The notes under the pieces are model-generated. The model worked only from the letters and a program-made list of their open reading frames with translations. It was not told where the DNA came from and did not search any database. From assembly GCA_040390725.1 (NCBI GenBank), contig JAZJXT010000001.1, positions 85,070 through 149,069 on the forward strand: a stretch of 64,000 bases of DNA, read 5' to 3'. Position numbers and translations under genes: made by a program. Position 1 is the stretch's first letter. Each line of letters opens with the position of its first letter. Source of the stretch: Patescibacteria group bacterium. Lineage in GTDB: Bacteria; Patescibacteriota; Minisyncoccia; Phycocordibacterales; UBA9973. Shown here in pieces: positions 6,773 through 58,113 of the stretch.

Positions 6773-6857
6773 GGAGGCGTCGCATAGCGGTCTAGTGCGC
6801 AGACCTGGAAAGTCTGTGTGGGGAAACCCACCGAGAGTTCGAATCTCTCCGCCTCCG
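6773..6857 (+). tRNA. tRNA-Ser (anticodon GGA) with long variable arm
   Basis: Acceptor GGAGGCG/CGCCTCC; anticodon loop CTGGAAA; long extra arm; T-arm GAGAG-TTCGAAT-CTCTC; CCA not encoded. Confidence 0.85.
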
Positions 6858-6916
6858 CATTGACAAGTTATATATTCTGTGTTTACTATTTTAGTACTTT
6901 GATTACTAAGGATTAC

Positions 6917-40517: not shown

Positions 40518-40537
40518 TAATTTATTTCAATATCTTG

Positions 40538-40610
40538 AGCCGGCAGGGGGATTCGAACCCGCGACCTTCGCTTTACAAAAGCGTTGCTCTACCAACTGAG
40601 CTATGCCGGC
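40538..40610 (-). tRNA. tRNA-Thr (anticodon TGT)
   Basis: Reverse complement GCCGGCATAGCTCAGTTGGTAGAGCAACGCTTTTGTAAAGCGAAGGTCGCGGGTTCGAATCCCCCTGCCGGCT: 7-bp acceptor, D-arm, anticodon loop TTTGTAA, T-loop TTCGAAT; one T-stem mismatch by my reading. Confidence 0.8.
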
Positions 40611-45804: not shown

Positions 45805-46576
45805 AAAAGCTAAACAGAAAAAACTTAAAAATATCGCTATCGGCGTAATTGTTTTATTGTTTCTAATTTATTTCCGAGCCGGGATTTTTGGCGGGCTTTC
45901 GACTGCTTCTCATTTTGTTTTTCGACCTGTGATTATTTTAGGCAATAATATAGGTGAAAAGTTTTCAAATACTCGAGCGTATTTTCTTTCAAAACATTCT
46001 CTACTTTTAGAAAATGAAAATTTAAAAACACAAATATCAGAAAGCGAAGCGTACAGAGCGAATTATGCTTTGGTTGTCGATGAAAATAATAAATTGAAAG
46101 AAACTTTAGGCAGGAAAAATGAAAAAATGAATTTTGTTCTTTCTGCGATTTTATCCAAGCCAAATCAATCACCGTATGATACTCTAATAATAGACGCAGG
46201 TAAAAATCAAAATATAAATATTGGCAATGTGGTTTTTGCATTAGGTGATGTACCTATCGGTAAAGTTGCCGAAGTTTATGCAAATTCTTCAAAAGTTATT
46301 TTATTTTCAAATCCGGGAGAAAAGACAGAAGTTGTTGTGGGAGCTAAAGATAGTTTTATGGAAATTGTCGGCCGAGGAGGAGGGAATTTTGAACTTATTT
46401 TACCGAGGGACTTTGTGTTAGATGCTGGCGCTGAAGTTCGTTTGCCGGGCATTAATCCATACATTTTGGCTGTGATGCAAACTATCGTATCCGACCCCCG
46501 CGACTCGTTCCAAAAAGCTCTTTTCACGAGTCCTGTAAACGTGCAAGAACTAAATTTTGTGGAGGTGGAAAAATAA
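45785..46576 (+). CDS. mreC: rod shape-determining protein MreC
   Basis: N-terminal TM, coiled coil, C-terminal beta domains; immediately downstream of and overlapping mreB. Confidence 0.8.
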   Translation: MSYHLDKKAKQKKLKNIAIGVIVLLFLIYFRAGIFGGLSTASHFVFRPVIILGNNIGEKFSNTRAYFLSKHSLLLENENLKTQISESEAYRANYALVVDENNKLKETLGRKNEKMNFVLSAILSKPNQSPYDTLIIDAGKNQNINIGNVVFALGDVPIGKVAEVYANSSKVILFSNPGEKTEVVVGAKDSFMEIVGRGGGNFELILPRDFVLDAGAEVRLPGINPYILAVMQTIVSDPRDSFQKALFTSPVNVQELNFVEVEK

Positions 46577-47868
46577 TGCATTTTAAAATACAAAAAAAGT
46601 TGGAAAATAGTTTGGGGCGGGCGGGGGTTTTGGAAACTCCTCACGGGGAGATTTTGACGCCGGCATTTGTGGCTGTGGGCACCAAGGCTACGGTGAAATC
46701 TTTAACTCCGGAACAAGTCCGTGATGCTGGCACACAAGTCGTGCTCGGTAATACTTACCACTTATTTTTACAACCCGGGGATGAAATAGTCCGCGATGCG
46801 GGAGGTATTGGGAAATTTATGAATTGGCATGGTCCCACAATGACGGACTCTGGGGGGTTCCAAGTTTTTTCTTTGGGTGTTGCTTATGGAAAAGATATTT
46901 CAAAAGTTGTTAAAATTACTGACCCGTCGCTAATGATTCCTGAAAGGTTTGATGACAGTGATGCGCCACGGCTCGCAAAAATAGGGCAGGATGGAGTTTC
47001 TTTTAAGTCGCACCTCGATGGCAGTATTCATTATATAACTCCGGAGAAATCAATTCAGATTCAGCACAACCTCGGCGCGGATATTATTTTTGCTTTTGAT
47101 GAATGCACCAGTCCGGCGGAAGATGCAAAATATCAAGAAGAGGCTTTGGAGCGGACGCATATTTGGGCAAAGAGGTGCTTGGAGGAGCACAAAAGATTAG
47201 CTGGCGAAAAAGATTCTTTCTTTACAGGGTCGCTGTCTGTGCCTGCTGGCACAGCGCTGCCTCTCGGCTCGTCAGCCTGCGAGACACCCCGCAAAGAAAA
47301 ATCTTTTTCACCAGCTCTCTTTGGGATCGTGCAAGGCGGGCGAGATGAAAGTTTGCGAAAGAAATCAGCGGAATTTATTTCCAGTTTGGATTTTGATGGG
47401 TTTGGTATCGGTGGGAGTTTTGCCAAAGAAGATATGTCCACAGCAGTAAAATGGGTGAATGAAATTTTGCCGGAAGAAAAGCCTAGGCACTTGCTTGGCA
47501 TCGGTGAGCCGGAAGATTTATTTATGGGCATAGAAAACGGCGTGGATCTTTTTGATTGCGTCTTGCCGACGCGCCTAGGCAGGAATGGCACTATATATAC
47601 AAAGAATGGAAAAATAAGTATTACGAATACAAAATTTAGAAATGATTTTACGCCGATTGAAAATGACTGCGAATGTTATTCTTGTAAGAACTATACAAAA
47701 TCTTACATCGCGCATTTGTTTCACGGTAAAGAAATGCTCGCGGGAACTTTAGCTTCTACTCACAATTTGTATTTTATTGTAAATCTGGTAAAAAAAATCC
47801 GCCAAAGTATTTTGGACGGTAACTTTCACGAATTTAAAAAAGAGTTTTTGAGTAATTATTTAAAATAA
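46576..47868 (+). CDS. tgt: queuine tRNA-ribosyltransferase with a GC-rich in-frame insertion of about 30 aa
   Basis: VLETPHGEILTPAFVAVGT; catalytic Asp regions; Zn site CECYSCKNY...H; 430 aa, about 40 aa longer than typical Tgt. Confidence 0.9.
   Translation: MHFKIQKKLENSLGRAGVLETPHGEILTPAFVAVGTKATVKSLTPEQVRDAGTQVVLGNTYHLFLQPGDEIVRDAGGIGKFMNWHGPTMTDSGGFQVFSLGVAYGKDISKVVKITDPSLMIPERFDDSDAPRLAKIGQDGVSFKSHLDGSIHYITPEKSIQIQHNLGADIIFAFDECTSPAEDAKYQEEALERTHIWAKRCLEEHKRLAGEKDSFFTGSLSVPAGTALPLGSSACETPRKEKSFSPALFGIVQGGRDESLRKKSAEFISSLDFDGFGIGGSFAKEDMSTAVKWVNEILPEEKPRHLLGIGEPEDLFMGIENGVDLFDCVLPTRLGRNGTIYTKNGKISITNTKFRNDFTPIENDCECYSCKNYTKSYIAHLFHGKEMLAGTLASTHNLYFIVNLVKKIRQSILDGNFHEFKKEFLSNYLK
47226..47318 (+). 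other. GC-rich hairpin-containing in-frame insertion inside tgt
   Basis: gtgcctgctggcac and tctcg...cgaga palindromes; GC far above the local average; encodes FTGSLSVPAGTALPLGSSACETPRKEKSF between WAKRC... and ALFGIVQGG, where E. coli and Z. mobilis Tgt have about 14 residues. Confidence 0.55.
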
Positions 47869-48247: not shown

Positions 48248-50344
48248 ATGCAAGGAAAATTCAAATTAAAACTTCCTTTTGAGCCGGCCGGGGATCAACC
48301 CAAGGCTATTTCGGCTTTGGTAAACGGCTTGAAAAAAGGGATGAGGAAGCAGACGTTGCTGGGGGTGACGGGTAGTGGCAAGACTTTTACCGTAGCGAAT
48401 GTTATTCAGCAAATGCAGAAGTCTACGTTGATAATAGCTCATAATAAAACTTTGGCAGCGCAACTTGCCCAAGAATACAAAAGTTTTTTTCCGGAAAATG
48501 CCGTACATTATTTTGTTTCATATTATGATTATTATCAGCCGGAAGCCTACATGCCGATGACGGACACATATATAGAAAAGGATGCACAGATAAATAAAGA
48601 GATAGACAGGTTGCGACATGCGAGTACGCAAGCCCTTTTGACGCGCAAAGATGTGATAATAGTGGCTTCGGTTTCTTGTATTTACGGTTTGGGAAGTCCG
48701 GAGGAATACAGGGAAGAGAATTTGGAAATAAATGTGGGTGATAAAATTTCTCGTACGGATTTGATGTCGCGTTTAATTGCGATGCATTTCGAAAGGACAA
48801 ATGCGGACTTGACTCCGGGAACTTTCCGCGCGCTTGCGAATAAAATAGAAATAATGCCGGTGTCTGAGAATTTTTTATATAGCATTTCTTTGGAAAAAGA
48901 TAAAATAGAAAATATAATTAGAATTGATCCGGTAAGCTCAAAAGTTTTAAGTGAAGAAAAAAGTATTTTTATTTTTCCGGCAAAACATTTTATAACAAAT
49001 AAATCAAAATTAGAGCTTGCCATAAAAAATATAAAATCTGAGCTGAAAGAGCAGTTAAAAAAGTTCGATAAAGAAGGGAAAATTTTGGAAGCGGAAAGAA
49101 TAAAAAGAAGAACGAATTATGATGTGGCGATGCTTCGCGAGGTGGGGTATTGTTCCGGTATTGAAAATTACTCTCGACATTTATCTGGTAAAAAAGCCGG
49201 TGAAGCACCGGAGACTTTGCTATCTTATTTTCCAAAAAAAGAAAGTCAGGAAAGTACTCTTCGTCGCTCGCACTCTGTCCTGGAAGGGCAAGGTTCATAT
49301 GTTCGTAGCGAAGGCTTCTCCAAGTACTTTCCTGACTTTCTTACTATTATTGATGAATCGCATGTGACTGTGCCACAAATCGGTGGTATGTATGCGGGTG
49401 ATGCTTCGAGAAAAGGTACATTGGTTGATCATGGTTTTCGTTTACCTTCAGCGAAAGACAATCGCCCTCTGAAATATGATGAATTTGAAAAAAGAGTCGG
49501 GCAAGTTATTTATACTTCGGCGACGCCATCAGAATTGGAAAGAAAAGAAAGTGCGCAAATCGTGGAGCAGATTATTCGTCCTACAGGGCTTGTTGATCCG
49601 GAGATAGAGGTGAAGCCGGTAATTGCTTCTAAGAAATATCCCGGTCAAGTGCAAGATTTTATCAAAGAAGCGGAAAAGGAAATAAAAAAAGGCGGGCGTG
49701 TGATAGCCACGACCTTGACCAAAAAAATGGCGGAAGATTTATCGGCATATTTGAAAGATAAAAAAATAAAATCAGAATATGTACACAGTGATATAAAAAC
49801 AATTGAACGCATAAAAATTTTAACGGAATTCCGAAAAGGGAAATTTGATATTTTAGTCGGGGTGAATTTGCTCCGTGAAGGATTGGATTTGCCGGAGGTG
49901 ACATTGATAGGAATTTTAGACGCGGACAAGGAAGGTTTTTTGCGCAGTGAAGTTTCTCTCATTCAGACTATCGGTCGCGCAGCTAGGAATGTCGAAGGGC
50001 GAGTGATTCTTTATGCGGATCATATTACCGGATCGATGAAGCGCGCGATGGATGAGACGAATCGCAGACGGGTGATACAAGTGGCTTATAATAAAAAACA
50101 CAACATAACTCCGAAAACCATTATCAAAAAAATTCAAGACATTACCGAAGGTATGGATACTATTCACGACAAAGCCGTGCGTTCCGAACTCGATTTAGAT
50201 ACAAAACTTTTCGCTAAAAATCCATCAAAACTTGTGAAATTAAAAGAGCGTCAAATGTCTGAAGCTGTAAAAGCTCTCGACTTTGAAACAGCAGCTATTT
50301 TGCGTGATGAATTAAAGATCCTAAGGGAGAGATTAGTGAAATAG
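48248..50344 (+). CDS. uvrB: excinuclease ABC subunit B with an in-frame insertion of about 30 aa
   Basis: Walker A (GVTGSGKTFT); helicase motifs; DESHVTVPQIGGMY; C-terminal UVR domain; 698 aa. Confidence 0.95.
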   Translation: MQGKFKLKLPFEPAGDQPKAISALVNGLKKGMRKQTLLGVTGSGKTFTVANVIQQMQKSTLIIAHNKTLAAQLAQEYKSFFPENAVHYFVSYYDYYQPEAYMPMTDTYIEKDAQINKEIDRLRHASTQALLTRKDVIIVASVSCIYGLGSPEEYREENLEINVGDKISRTDLMSRLIAMHFERTNADLTPGTFRALANKIEIMPVSENFLYSISLEKDKIENIIRIDPVSSKVLSEEKSIFIFPAKHFITNKSKLELAIKNIKSELKEQLKKFDKEGKILEAERIKRRTNYDVAMLREVGYCSGIENYSRHLSGKKAGEAPETLLSYFPKKESQESTLRRSHSVLEGQGSYVRSEGFSKYFPDFLTIIDESHVTVPQIGGMYAGDASRKGTLVDHGFRLPSAKDNRPLKYDEFEKRVGQVIYTSATPSELERKESAQIVEQIIRPTGLVDPEIEVKPVIASKKYPGQVQDFIKEAEKEIKKGGRVIATTLTKKMAEDLSAYLKDKKIKSEYVHSDIKTIERIKILTEFRKGKFDILVGVNLLREGLDLPEVTLIGILDADKEGFLRSEVSLIQTIGRAARNVEGRVILYADHITGSMKRAMDETNRRRVIQVAYNKKHNITPKTIIKKIQDITEGMDTIHDKAVRSELDLDTKLFAKNPSKLVKLKERQMSEAVKALDFETAAILRDELKILRERLVK
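49234..49331 (+). other. inserted segment of about 90 nt inside uvrB with terminal inverted repeats (gaaagtactcttcg ... cgaag..agtactttc), flanked by tattttcc / tactttcc
   Basis: Encodes KKESQESTLRRSHSVLEGQGSYVRSEGFSK between LSYFP and YFPDFLTIIDESH; E. coli UvrB has FDYLPADGLLVVDESH here with no such segment. Confidence 0.5.
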
Positions 50345-55899: not shown

Positions 55900-56265
55900 A
55901 AAGTCTTGAGCTGGATAATCGCGTCCTGAGCTTGTCGAAGGATGAGGAAAGTCCGAACATGGCGAATCCAATTTATTGGAAGGGAATGGTAATGGGTAAT
56001 TCCCATACAGGGCAACCTGCGAGGTGCGAGCAGAGACGCCGATGCCGAAAGGCTAGGGCTCCGACGTAACGTCGGAGCAGTCCAGTGGAAACACTGGGGT
56101 GAAACGGCTAAATCCTTACCCCCATGCAAGATCGTGTCCGCCCACAGCTACACAGTTGCTGGCGGAAGAATCGCTCGACTCCGACGGTAACGTCGGAGCT
56201 AGATAAATGATTATCGTTCCGACCTCGTGTCGGGATACAGAATTCGGCTTATAGGCTTAAGACAA
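55900..56265 (+). ncRNA. rnpB: RNase P RNA (bacterial type A)
   Basis: P4 hallmark GAGGAAAGTCCG near the 5' end and ACAGAATTCGGCTTA near the 3' end; P1 pairing gtcttgag/cttaagac; TATAAT at 55892-55897 about 6 nt upstream; terminator immediately downstream. Confidence 0.85.
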
Positions 56266-56271
56266 AACATG

Positions 56272-57561: not shown

Positions 57562-58113
57562 TTATTTTTGAGGTTTTTCTTCTTTTACTTCTTTTGCATG
57601 GTCGATAAAAAGAATACCATTCAGATGGTCAGTTTCATGTTGAAAAATTTGCGCCAATAGACCGCTTGCGCCACGAGTAAACTTTTTTCCATTTTCATCG
57701 TATGCCTCGGCTGTGGCTTTGATTGAACGATATGTTTTACCATAGAGCCAGCGCACGGACAGGCATCCTTCAGGTAGCCATTTTTTCTCACGGGATAATT
57801 TTGATATTTTTGGATTTATGAAAACAAGATGTTTTATTTCTTTCGGCTCCCTCTCCTTATTAAGGAGAGGGTTGGGGTGAGGTTCTTCTTTTTTCATAAA
57901 ATCATCTTCAAATATTTTTCCGGAAACTAGAAAAATACGCAATGAGTAGCCTATTTGCGGGGCAGCTATGGCCACACCATCACTTTGGCTCTTGAGAGCT
58001 TCTTCCATTTCTTTTAAGATTTTTTTTATTTTTGGAGTGCAAATATCTTTTATAGGCACCTCTTTGGCGACTTCTCTGAGCACTTTTTCTTCTTTTTGAA
58101 CAATATCCTTCAT
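57562..58113 (-). CDS. def: peptide deformylase
   Basis: Motifs G.aA.QIG, EGCLSV and HETDHLNG; 183 aa. Confidence 0.9.
   Translation of the reverse strand: MKDIVQKEEKVLREVAKEVPIKDICTPKIKKILKEMEEALKSQSDGVAIAAPQIGYSLRIFLVSGKIFEDDFMKKEEPHPNPLLNKEREPKEIKHLVFINPKISKLSREKKWLPEGCLSVRWLYGKTYRSIKATAEAYDENGKKFTRGASGLLAQIFQHETDHLNGILFIDHAKEVKEEKPQK
57849..57884 (+). repeat. GC-rich palindromic mini-element (copy B) inside the def ORF, antisense to the gene, translated in frame
   Basis: ccctctcc-ttatta-aggagaggg + ttggggtgaggtt; read on the minus strand as EPHPNPLLNKEREPKE within the def insertion loop. Confidence 0.7.

Follow-up and report, generated by a model that had tools for sequence, protein, structure and literature searches.

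The window analysed here is a 64-kb stretch of DNA (GC 0.37) from a Patescibacteria (Nomurabacteria/Paceibacteria) metagenome-assembled genome, to which all coordinates refer, and the subject of this report is a palindromic segment that lies in frame within its uvrB gene. The uvrB coding sequence (48248–50344, + strand), drawn from the list of open reading frames (ORFs), encodes an intact host protein of 698 residues that matches a UvrB-annotated protein of a Patescibacteria metagenome-assembled genome at 100% and aligns to the solved UvrB structure 2FDC with E = 3e-235. This ORF includes the extra segment KKESQESTLRRSHSVLEGQGSYVRSEGFSKYFP. The alignment with 2FDC breaks into two blocks, residues 2–330 and 360–689, with 32 residues extra in the window protein. 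The doubling of a YFP motif, which the initial annotation had taken as a sign of insertion, is borne out, as both copies fall on the same 2FDC chain residues 328–330. Together with these two blocks, a codon-level comparison with the empty allele YFPK|DFL of relatives L002, L003, L004 and L057 (L-numbers label the related sequences and loci compared) places the inserted segment at 49238–49333 (+), that is, 96 nt or 32 in-frame codons free of stops. The empty-site allele of close relatives reads TAT TTT GGA AAA GAT TTT, and it is against this allele that the insert measures 96 nt, in support of the in-frame inverted-repeat insertion of about 90 nt proposed at the outset.

The palindrome as a whole is a hairpin of about 104 nt at 49239–49342 (+), composed of a left arm, a core and a right arm and delimited by its perfect 20-nt inverted repeat, by its fold energy and by the anatomy of 49 unique copies. 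The arms of the inverted repeat (49239–49258 and 49323–49342, 20 nt each) are 100% complementary and constitute the longest inverted repeat in the window. Terminal inverted repeats had first been put at about 14 nt; the inverted repeat is real, and its arms are longer than that and perfect. Similarly, the bounds first given for the insert, 49234–49331, were slightly off, with the conserved unit at 49257–49324 and the arms extending from 49239 to 49342. When folded as RNA, the insert region reaches −41.8 kcal/mol (z = −5.4), a stability equalled by 0 of 200 shuffles. The GC enrichment that had been remarked on also stands, at 0.47 for the element and 0.54 for the core compared with 0.39 for the uvrB gene and 0.37 for the window. 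Rfam contains no gathering-threshold match at this hairpin or at a second one in tgt described below, and none at E <= 1 overlapping either.

Four parts of the hairpin can be distinguished, all on the + strand. The left outer arm AAGAAAGTCAGGAAAGTA (49239–49256) is site-specific, its outer 9 nt being the reverse complement of the host codons GAC TTT CTT, and the arms co-vary among orthologous copies. The conserved core of 68 nt (CTCTTCGTCGCTCGCACTCTGTCCTGGAAGGGCAAG...GTAGCGAAGGCTTCTCCAAG; 49257–49324) is defined by its length in other copies, by the gapless alignment A2 and by a hidden Markov model (HMM) of the core. Within it, the most conserved block (49268–49292) includes an apical stem-loop, TCYTG-GAAGGG-CAAG, and is invariant in L001, L003 and L081–L083, copies that were picked by protein similarity only; this block served as the search pattern. 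The right outer arm TACTTTCCTGACTTTCTT (49325–49342) ends in 49334–49342, which are the UvrB codons for D-F-L and belong to the host, as DFL is found in all UvrBs, those with empty sites included.

A target-site duplication, suggested by the 8-nt direct repeats TATTTTCC (49226–49233, +) and TACTTTCC (49325–49332, +), does not hold up. The two copies match at 7 of 8 positions, and the right one is itself part of the right arm. Across the window, the frequency of direct 8-mers that agree at 7/8 or better with this spacing is 0.0012 per position-spacing pair, and roughly 200 placements are possible near the two ends, so that a 7/8 repeat is at chance level. Nor is the repeat general: the flanks of 49 other copies show no consistent duplication, with a best direct match of typically 5/8 and never 8/8 (against a null slightly biased low by N padding). 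Likewise, the 14-nt end motif recurs in the window only as chance-level matches.

At the protein level, alignment to 2FDC places the insert at the junction before helicase motif II, and the peptides ESTLR and SHSVLEGQGSYVR would span it if translated. An AlphaFold2 (AF2) model, whose mean predicted local distance difference test score (pLDDT) is only 70 (moderate), shows residues 334–358 as coil with pLDDT <50, flanked by two short strands and directly ahead of the motif II strand. The 32 extra residues are thus predicted to form a hydrophilic, disordered loop-out between domain 1b and the strand of helicase motif II. A profile built from the tandem-doubled 50-residue insert peptide found no protein match, among only 20 candidates.

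Invariant core and site-specific arms

The uvrB insert belongs to a dispersed palindromic DNA family of Paceibacteria (Patescibacteria), here called family 1. We refer to the position occupied in the window as UvrB site A and to a second position in the same protein as UvrB site B. The window, L001, L003 and L081–L083 have in common, at the DNA level, a core of about 68 nt surrounded by a stem that differs; the core occupies the same UvrB site in L001 and L081–L083 and the other UvrB site in L003. Metagenome contigs scanned with the invariant 25-nt block gave 46 loci with the core, and the core HMM, then run on all sequence collected, gave 58 core matches. The hosts are UvrB sites A and B, the inter-domain linker of PolA, the CCA-adding enzyme (PolyA_pol and HD domains), UvrC, UvrA and IleRS, amounting to seven intragenic sites in six genes, to which three intergenic sites are added.

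Copies in genes predominate (46 of 49 unique copies), and 45 of these 46 are embedded in long open frames in which host motifs both precede and follow them. The exception, L125 (contig Ga0182028_1193047), is in a CCA-enzyme gene and is the only intragenic copy around which the host frame is broken, perhaps because the gene is a pseudogene or wrongly assembled. Reverse-oriented copies in L099, L117 and L113 are also in frame. The CCA-enzyme copies have a 69-nt core whose right half is read in a different frame (SQRRLLQAS vs GRSEDSSE), with the DNA still conserved. Five of the six frames through the core are open, and its sole stop, the TAG in GTAGCG, is in the very frame that the CCA-enzyme copies use, all of which have lost it. 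The loss of a stop exactly in the frame where it would be read argues that the inserts are translated. Third codon positions of the insert are conserved as well as first and second positions. A core present in many hosts, in both orientations and with its right half in two frames indicates that the conserved unit is DNA and not peptide. Taken with the relatives whose sites are empty, the occurrence of this DNA at seven intragenic and three intergenic sites upholds the view that the uvrB segment is an insertion and not ancestral UvrB sequence. What the copies reveal is a dispersed DNA palindrome that tolerates coding sequence and is tolerated by it.

Across the 49 unique copies the core measures 68 nt in 38 and 69 nt in 10, the whole hairpin 104–110 nt, and the outer stem a median of 18 bp per arm, of which 93% is Watson-Crick over 777 positions. 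In alignment A2, gapless and comprising 36 copies, 28 columns are invariant while the stem varies in a concerted manner, as 22 of 23 outer-stem pairs contain double-sided changes. The alignment holds 248 compensated cells vs 73 ± 7 in shuffles (a value reached by 0/500 shuffles), its covariation score is 0.52 vs 0.09–0.17 for slid controls, and one-sided changes number only 0–1 per column, with the G.U type nearly absent. RNAalifold on A2 pairs helix 2 as 32–35 with 75–72. The residual stem mismatches on the coding strand are A.C in 28 cases vs G.T in 8, and this excess, together with the scarcity of G.U, fits DNA-templated inverted copying better than selection for a helix in the mRNA. In 35 of 48 copies the non-coding strand gives a slightly more stable full hairpin than the coding strand. 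As the copies are non-independent, this asymmetry and the A.C excess are no more than suggestive of which DNA strand folds.

The outer arms differ at every site, the only recurring elements being CTC...GAG and a loose GGAnnATG motif. As such, the inverted repeats are not the conserved ends of an element, as had been supposed, and in uvrB the outer part of the right arm is host sequence. At UvrB site A the right arm runs into the host P-D-F-L codons in all lineages, and the left arm follows the synonymous variants of the host (CCTGACTTTCTT / AAGAAAGTCAGG, CCGGATTTTTT / AAAAAATCCGG and CCCGACTTTTT / AAAAAGTCGGG). The outer 9–10 nt of the right arm are the D-F-L codons, and the left arm carries their reverse complement. 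A direct reading of the L105 row shows that the right arm of this site-B copy likewise covers the host Y-P-G-Q-I codons. Each intergenic copy, too, has arms that are unique to it, so the variable stem is intrinsic to the element. Averaged across copies, GC is 0.42 in the arms, 0.53 in the core and 0.36 in the flanks.

Distribution on the UvrB tree

Comparison of 120 close UvrB homologues (657–777 aa) places the segment ...LRRSHSVLEGQ..S.RSEDSSE... at the same position in 31 of them, always in frame, and one relative bears the insert peptide at a different UvrB site. The nearest relatives (80–83% identity) read YFGKDFL at this position and many others YFPxxKDGxPDFL. On a neighbour-joining tree of UvrB, built without bootstrap, nearly every member of one clade, some 29 sequences in size, carries the element at site A, which indicates vertical retention. 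The initial annotation had raised the case of orthologues that share the segment and lack a terminal inverted-repeat signal. About 29 of the 120 do contain the segment at the same place, and the inverted-repeat signal is present there, which again points to vertical retention and leaves the insertion unrefuted. The window and L001 are nested among relatives with empty sites, and the presence of the element is incongruent with the UvrB tree. An imported recombination patch was considered and rejected: in sliding windows of identity the flanks resemble the empty-site clade more closely all the way to the element's edges, at a resolution of 90 nt at which patches under about 50 nt could escape.

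Core sequences do not cluster by site, since pairs of copies at the same site differ at a mean of 10.4 of 43 positions and other pairs at 11.0. Two of four same-contig pairs, in contrast, differ at only 2–3 of 43 positions vs a median of 10–11, and one contig has copies in polA, uvrB and uvrA. Two composite sites, in L117 (4660–4870, site B) and L113 (320–520, site A), contain a complete reverse copy of family 1 with its own arms, followed 4–12 nt further on by the last 15–18 nt of a forward copy and its right arm. The ORF is intact at both, and the break in the old forward copy is near its internal GTAG. These arrangements indicate re-insertion or palindrome-mediated rearrangement.

Two other features of these UvrBs concern the same loop or the same clade. 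Most Paceibacteria with the empty allele (e.g., L013, L016 and L005) have six extra residues (xKDGxP / DKNGKP) compared with UvrB from outside the candidate phyla radiation (CPR), which reads YFPKDFL, and P[RK]TKN residues are common to the empty-allele loop and to the left arm of filled alleles. The six-residue loop could be a deletion scar of the element or the original loop; Lys and Phe codons are mutually complementary, so apparent residual inverted repeats at xKDGxP loops are uninformative. The site-A family 1 clade also has a Lys-rich insertion of 22–38 residues (KELKLDKSKVTKKK...SDEER..LVYE) after window residue 660, near the C-terminal UVR domain, and other clades are extended at the C-terminus; as protein sequence, neither feature looks palindromic.

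Origin of the repeat and rival explanations

The uvrB insert is probably one copy of a non-autonomous palindromic DNA repeat that populates Paceibacteria and is a functional analogue of the Rickettsia palindromic elements (RPEs) and of intragenic repetitive extragenic palindromes (REPs). In genes, the surviving copies would be those that keep the frame, contain no stops and sit in permissive linkers or loops, and these would then be translated. Both the making of the arms and their continued complementarity would be due to a process acting on DNA, of which intrastrand template switching on the hairpin, in the manner of quasi-palindrome correction and extension, is the likeliest. Such switching would account for the near absence of G.U intermediates, for arms that track synonymous changes of the host and for a stem grown into the D-F-L codons. 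The invariant apical stem-loop may, speculatively, be the recognition site of a trans-acting protein on folded single-stranded or cruciform DNA, and the spread is probably aided by gene conversion among copies and by homologous recombination of alleles.

Among known systems, protein-coding palindromic repeats (RPEs, the Wolbachia repeats and intragenic REPs) appear to be the closest class, a comparison of described features in which those of RPEs are taken from reviews and later papers. RPE-1 to RPE-10 of Rickettsia and the Wolbachia palindromic repeats, the 'protein-coding palindromes' of Ogata et al. (2000, 2002, 2005), are like family 1 in that they are about 100–150 bp long and form a long stem-loop, join conserved housekeeping genes in frame while leaving them intact, fill orthologues at the same sites, share some sites as hotspots of several families and also occur between genes. 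Neither has a clear target-site duplication or an assigned transposase. The R. conorii uvrB carries an RPE at two sites, as Paceibacteria UvrB carries family 1 at two sites. The hosts differ, being intracellular parasites (Rickettsiales) for RPEs and free-living or episymbiotic Patescibacteria for family 1, and kinship in sequence is not expected. The invariant 68-nt core on site-unique, partly host-derived arms is a feature of family 1 that may or may not apply to RPEs.

REPs are palindromes of 20–40 bp with a GTAG/CGTC tetranucleotide at one end and RAYT transposases, and are mostly intergenic (PMC3733652); those within genes encode 20–30 residues and are enriched across species in the genes for UvrABC, UvrD, Pol I and RecBCD (Di Nocera et al. 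2013, PMC3733652). Family 1 is similar as a palindromic selfish repeat with an intragenic bias toward excision-repair genes (UvrA, both UvrB sites, UvrC and PolA). It fails the definition of a REP by size and terminal tag, its conserved unit being 68 nt and its tetranucleotides internal rather than terminal (CGTC at core positions 7–10, GTAG at 49–52), and it is mainly intragenic. No RAYT or IS200-like (IS200/IS605-type) gene is present among the ten largest window ORFs, the loci of other copies not having been scanned. Miniature inverted-repeat transposable elements such as Correia/NEMIS, ERIC, RUP and YPAL are also similar, as non-autonomous elements of 100–170 bp with long stem-loop transcripts and some in-frame gene fusions. 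They have, however, family-wide terminal inverted repeats that match a parent insertion sequence and usually a duplication of TA or other sequence, whereas the termini of family 1 are site-specific and no duplication is detectable.

Quasi-palindrome template switching, associated with Ripley and with Lovett and co-workers, reportedly perfects imperfect inverted repeats and can copy flanking sequence in inverted form. It fits the strict Watson-Crick arms of family 1 and the arm derived from D-F-L, although it is known as a mutational mechanism and not as part of the life cycle of a mobile element. A bolder form of our reading, which we consider unlikely, is that the hairpins are a distinct kind of mobile DNA. 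A short protein-recognised core would acquire self-made inverted terminal repeats from its flanks (an inverted target duplication), these would be kept perfect by self-templated repair, and resident copies would be targets for further insertion. That the element persists in uvrA/B/C and polA in phyla as distant as those of Rickettsiales and Patescibacteria would then stem from some link, mechanistic or selective, to excision repair. If this were true, insertion during repair synthesis, or tuning of repair capacity or mutation rate, would be possible forms of that link.

Several points weigh against a mobile, largely selfish repeat. Translation of the insert is inferred from sequence comparison and not observed. 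The exact 25-nt pattern used to collect metagenome copies inflates the apparent conservation of the core and misses diverged copies, and the copies are phylogenetically non-independent (about 8–10 distinct sites). Vertical inheritance accounts for the insert in the roughly 29 UvrBs of a single clade, which makes most copies old, and among the assembled contigs no single population has both empty and filled alleles, so that active transposition is inferred only. The ten largest window ORFs include no transposase or other mobilising gene, no genome-wide search having been made. The GC-rich inner parts of the arms (arm GC 0.42 vs flanks 0.36) are unexplained. Finally, the strong bias toward uvrA/B/C and polA could mean function, not selfishness.

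This last point is the basis of an explanation that we regard as improbable, namely that the hairpin is a functional cis-acting element of an excision-repair regulon (uvrA, uvrB, uvrC and polA), bound as RNA or DNA by a regulator or nuclease, with the peptide as a by-product. Five of the seven intragenic sites are in nucleotide-excision-repair (NER) genes, the core is near-invariant at the nucleotide level whatever its reading frame, the fold is very stable, and the same gene bias in other phyla was judged unlikely to be fortuitous by Di Nocera et al. (PMC3733652). The element is also found, however, in the CCA-adding enzyme, in IleRS and at three intergenic sites. It runs with transcription in some copies and against it in others, and many close relatives lack it in the same genes, where unrelated families occupy the same sites. 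Selection acting on mRNA would be expected to leave the reverse of what the coding strand shows, namely strictly Watson-Crick stems in which A.C mismatches (28) outnumber G.U (8). Moreover, polA, uvrB, uvrA and uvrC are physical neighbours in these genomes, and local spread is thus a sufficient explanation of the NER bias.

An intragenic inverton, with recombination at the arms inverting the core and so yielding two protein isoforms by phase variation, is highly improbable. Inverted repeats do flank a segment that is open in frame both ways, as they do in the intragenic invertons documented in other bacteria (bioRxiv 10.1101/2023.03.11.532203), and the sites in the CCA enzyme and both UvrB sites, A and B, are each known with forward and with reverse copies. 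In the assembled contigs, opposite orientations always belong to different organisms, and family 1 presents no evidence of flipping within a population. Instead of a clean flip, the reverse copies in L117 and L113 have arms of their own beside a truncated forward copy, as expected of re-insertion or rearrangement. The ten largest window ORFs include no recombinase, and the window copy has stops in two of three reverse frames.

Very little credence attaches to an ordinary lineage-specific UvrB loop with a protein-level function and an incidental DNA palindrome, a view already largely refuted. The peptide is indeed conserved in 31 of 120 UvrBs, at one place and always in frame, but the same DNA occurs in six other host contexts and in intergenic DNA, its other frames and reverse reading give unrelated peptides, its third codon positions are as conserved as the rest, AF2 finds no structure in it, and the nearest relatives do without it.

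Least probable of all is removal or skipping of the segment during expression, by intron-like excision from the mRNA or by translational bypassing from the first to the second set of YFP codons as precedented in phage T4 gene 60 and yeast mitochondria: the stable hairpin is bracketed in the window by the near-identical codons TAT TTT CCA / TAC TTT CCT, but other copies lack matched take-off and landing codons, all intragenic copies except one keep the host frame free of stops with the stop-containing frame repaired exactly where it is used (which skipping would make needless), removal of a 68- or 69-nt unit would not systematically restore the frame, and Rfam matches no intron or ribozyme.

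A dispersed palindromic repeat, as favoured here, bears on several wider questions. Palindromic repeats of the protein-coding kind have passed for an oddity of Rickettsia and a handful of other lineages, and the presence of several families in Paceibacteria shows a broader phenomenon. Palindrome inserts are a significant source of insertions in CPR proteins, inflating their lengths (as in UvrB, 657 to 777 aa among close relatives), and matter for annotation, alignment and protein-based phylogeny of CPR proteins. Family 1 independently reproduces, in another phylum, an unexplained bias toward NER genes. The opposition of an invariant core to self-complementary, host-derived arms offers a tractable system for how hairpins spread and palindromes grow in genomes. 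A literature search, incomplete in its coverage and so yielding only absence of evidence, found no description of such elements in CPR/Patescibacteria.

Other palindromes and RNAs in the window

Three different families are present within this single 64-kb window. A family 3 element lies in frame in tgt (gene 46576–47868, host identified as TGT by Pfam) at 47199–47316 (+), with its core at about 47219–47297 and arms of its own; it was recognised as inverted repeat I5 and by its fold. The hairpin is GC-rich, its 20-nt arms are 90% complementary, its fold reaches −58.8 kcal/mol (z = −6.1), and it encodes ...FFTGSLSVPAGTALPLGSSACETPRKEK... A relative of this element occupies UvrB site A of L122 (E = 4e-12), again with its own arms, of 26 nt. 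The possibility that the uvrB and tgt hairpins form one family was rejected because their direct alignment (A1) is without useful similarity.

The fold scan and translation also identified a short, perfect, in-frame palindrome, CCCTCTCCTTATTAAGGAGAGGG, followed by GTTGGGGTGAGG, at 57849–57871 (− strand) in the ORF 57562–58113, where the peptide reads NPLLNKERE / EPHPNPLLNKEREP. It is of the type CCCTCTCC...GGAGAGGG and probably belongs to another family. Peptides similar to this insert occur as inserts in the UvrB, PolA and CCA enzymes of relatives. Family 2 in-frame inserts (EFSQVLGSP...RPFENSL) are found in the PolA linker of L016, L094, L105 and L119 and at UvrB site A of L009, and families 2, 3 and others thus occupy the same permissive sites as family 1. 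The ordinary RNAs of the window are a class A RNase P RNA (55903–56267, 117.7 bits), tRNA-Ser (6773–6858) and tRNA-Thr (40537–40610).

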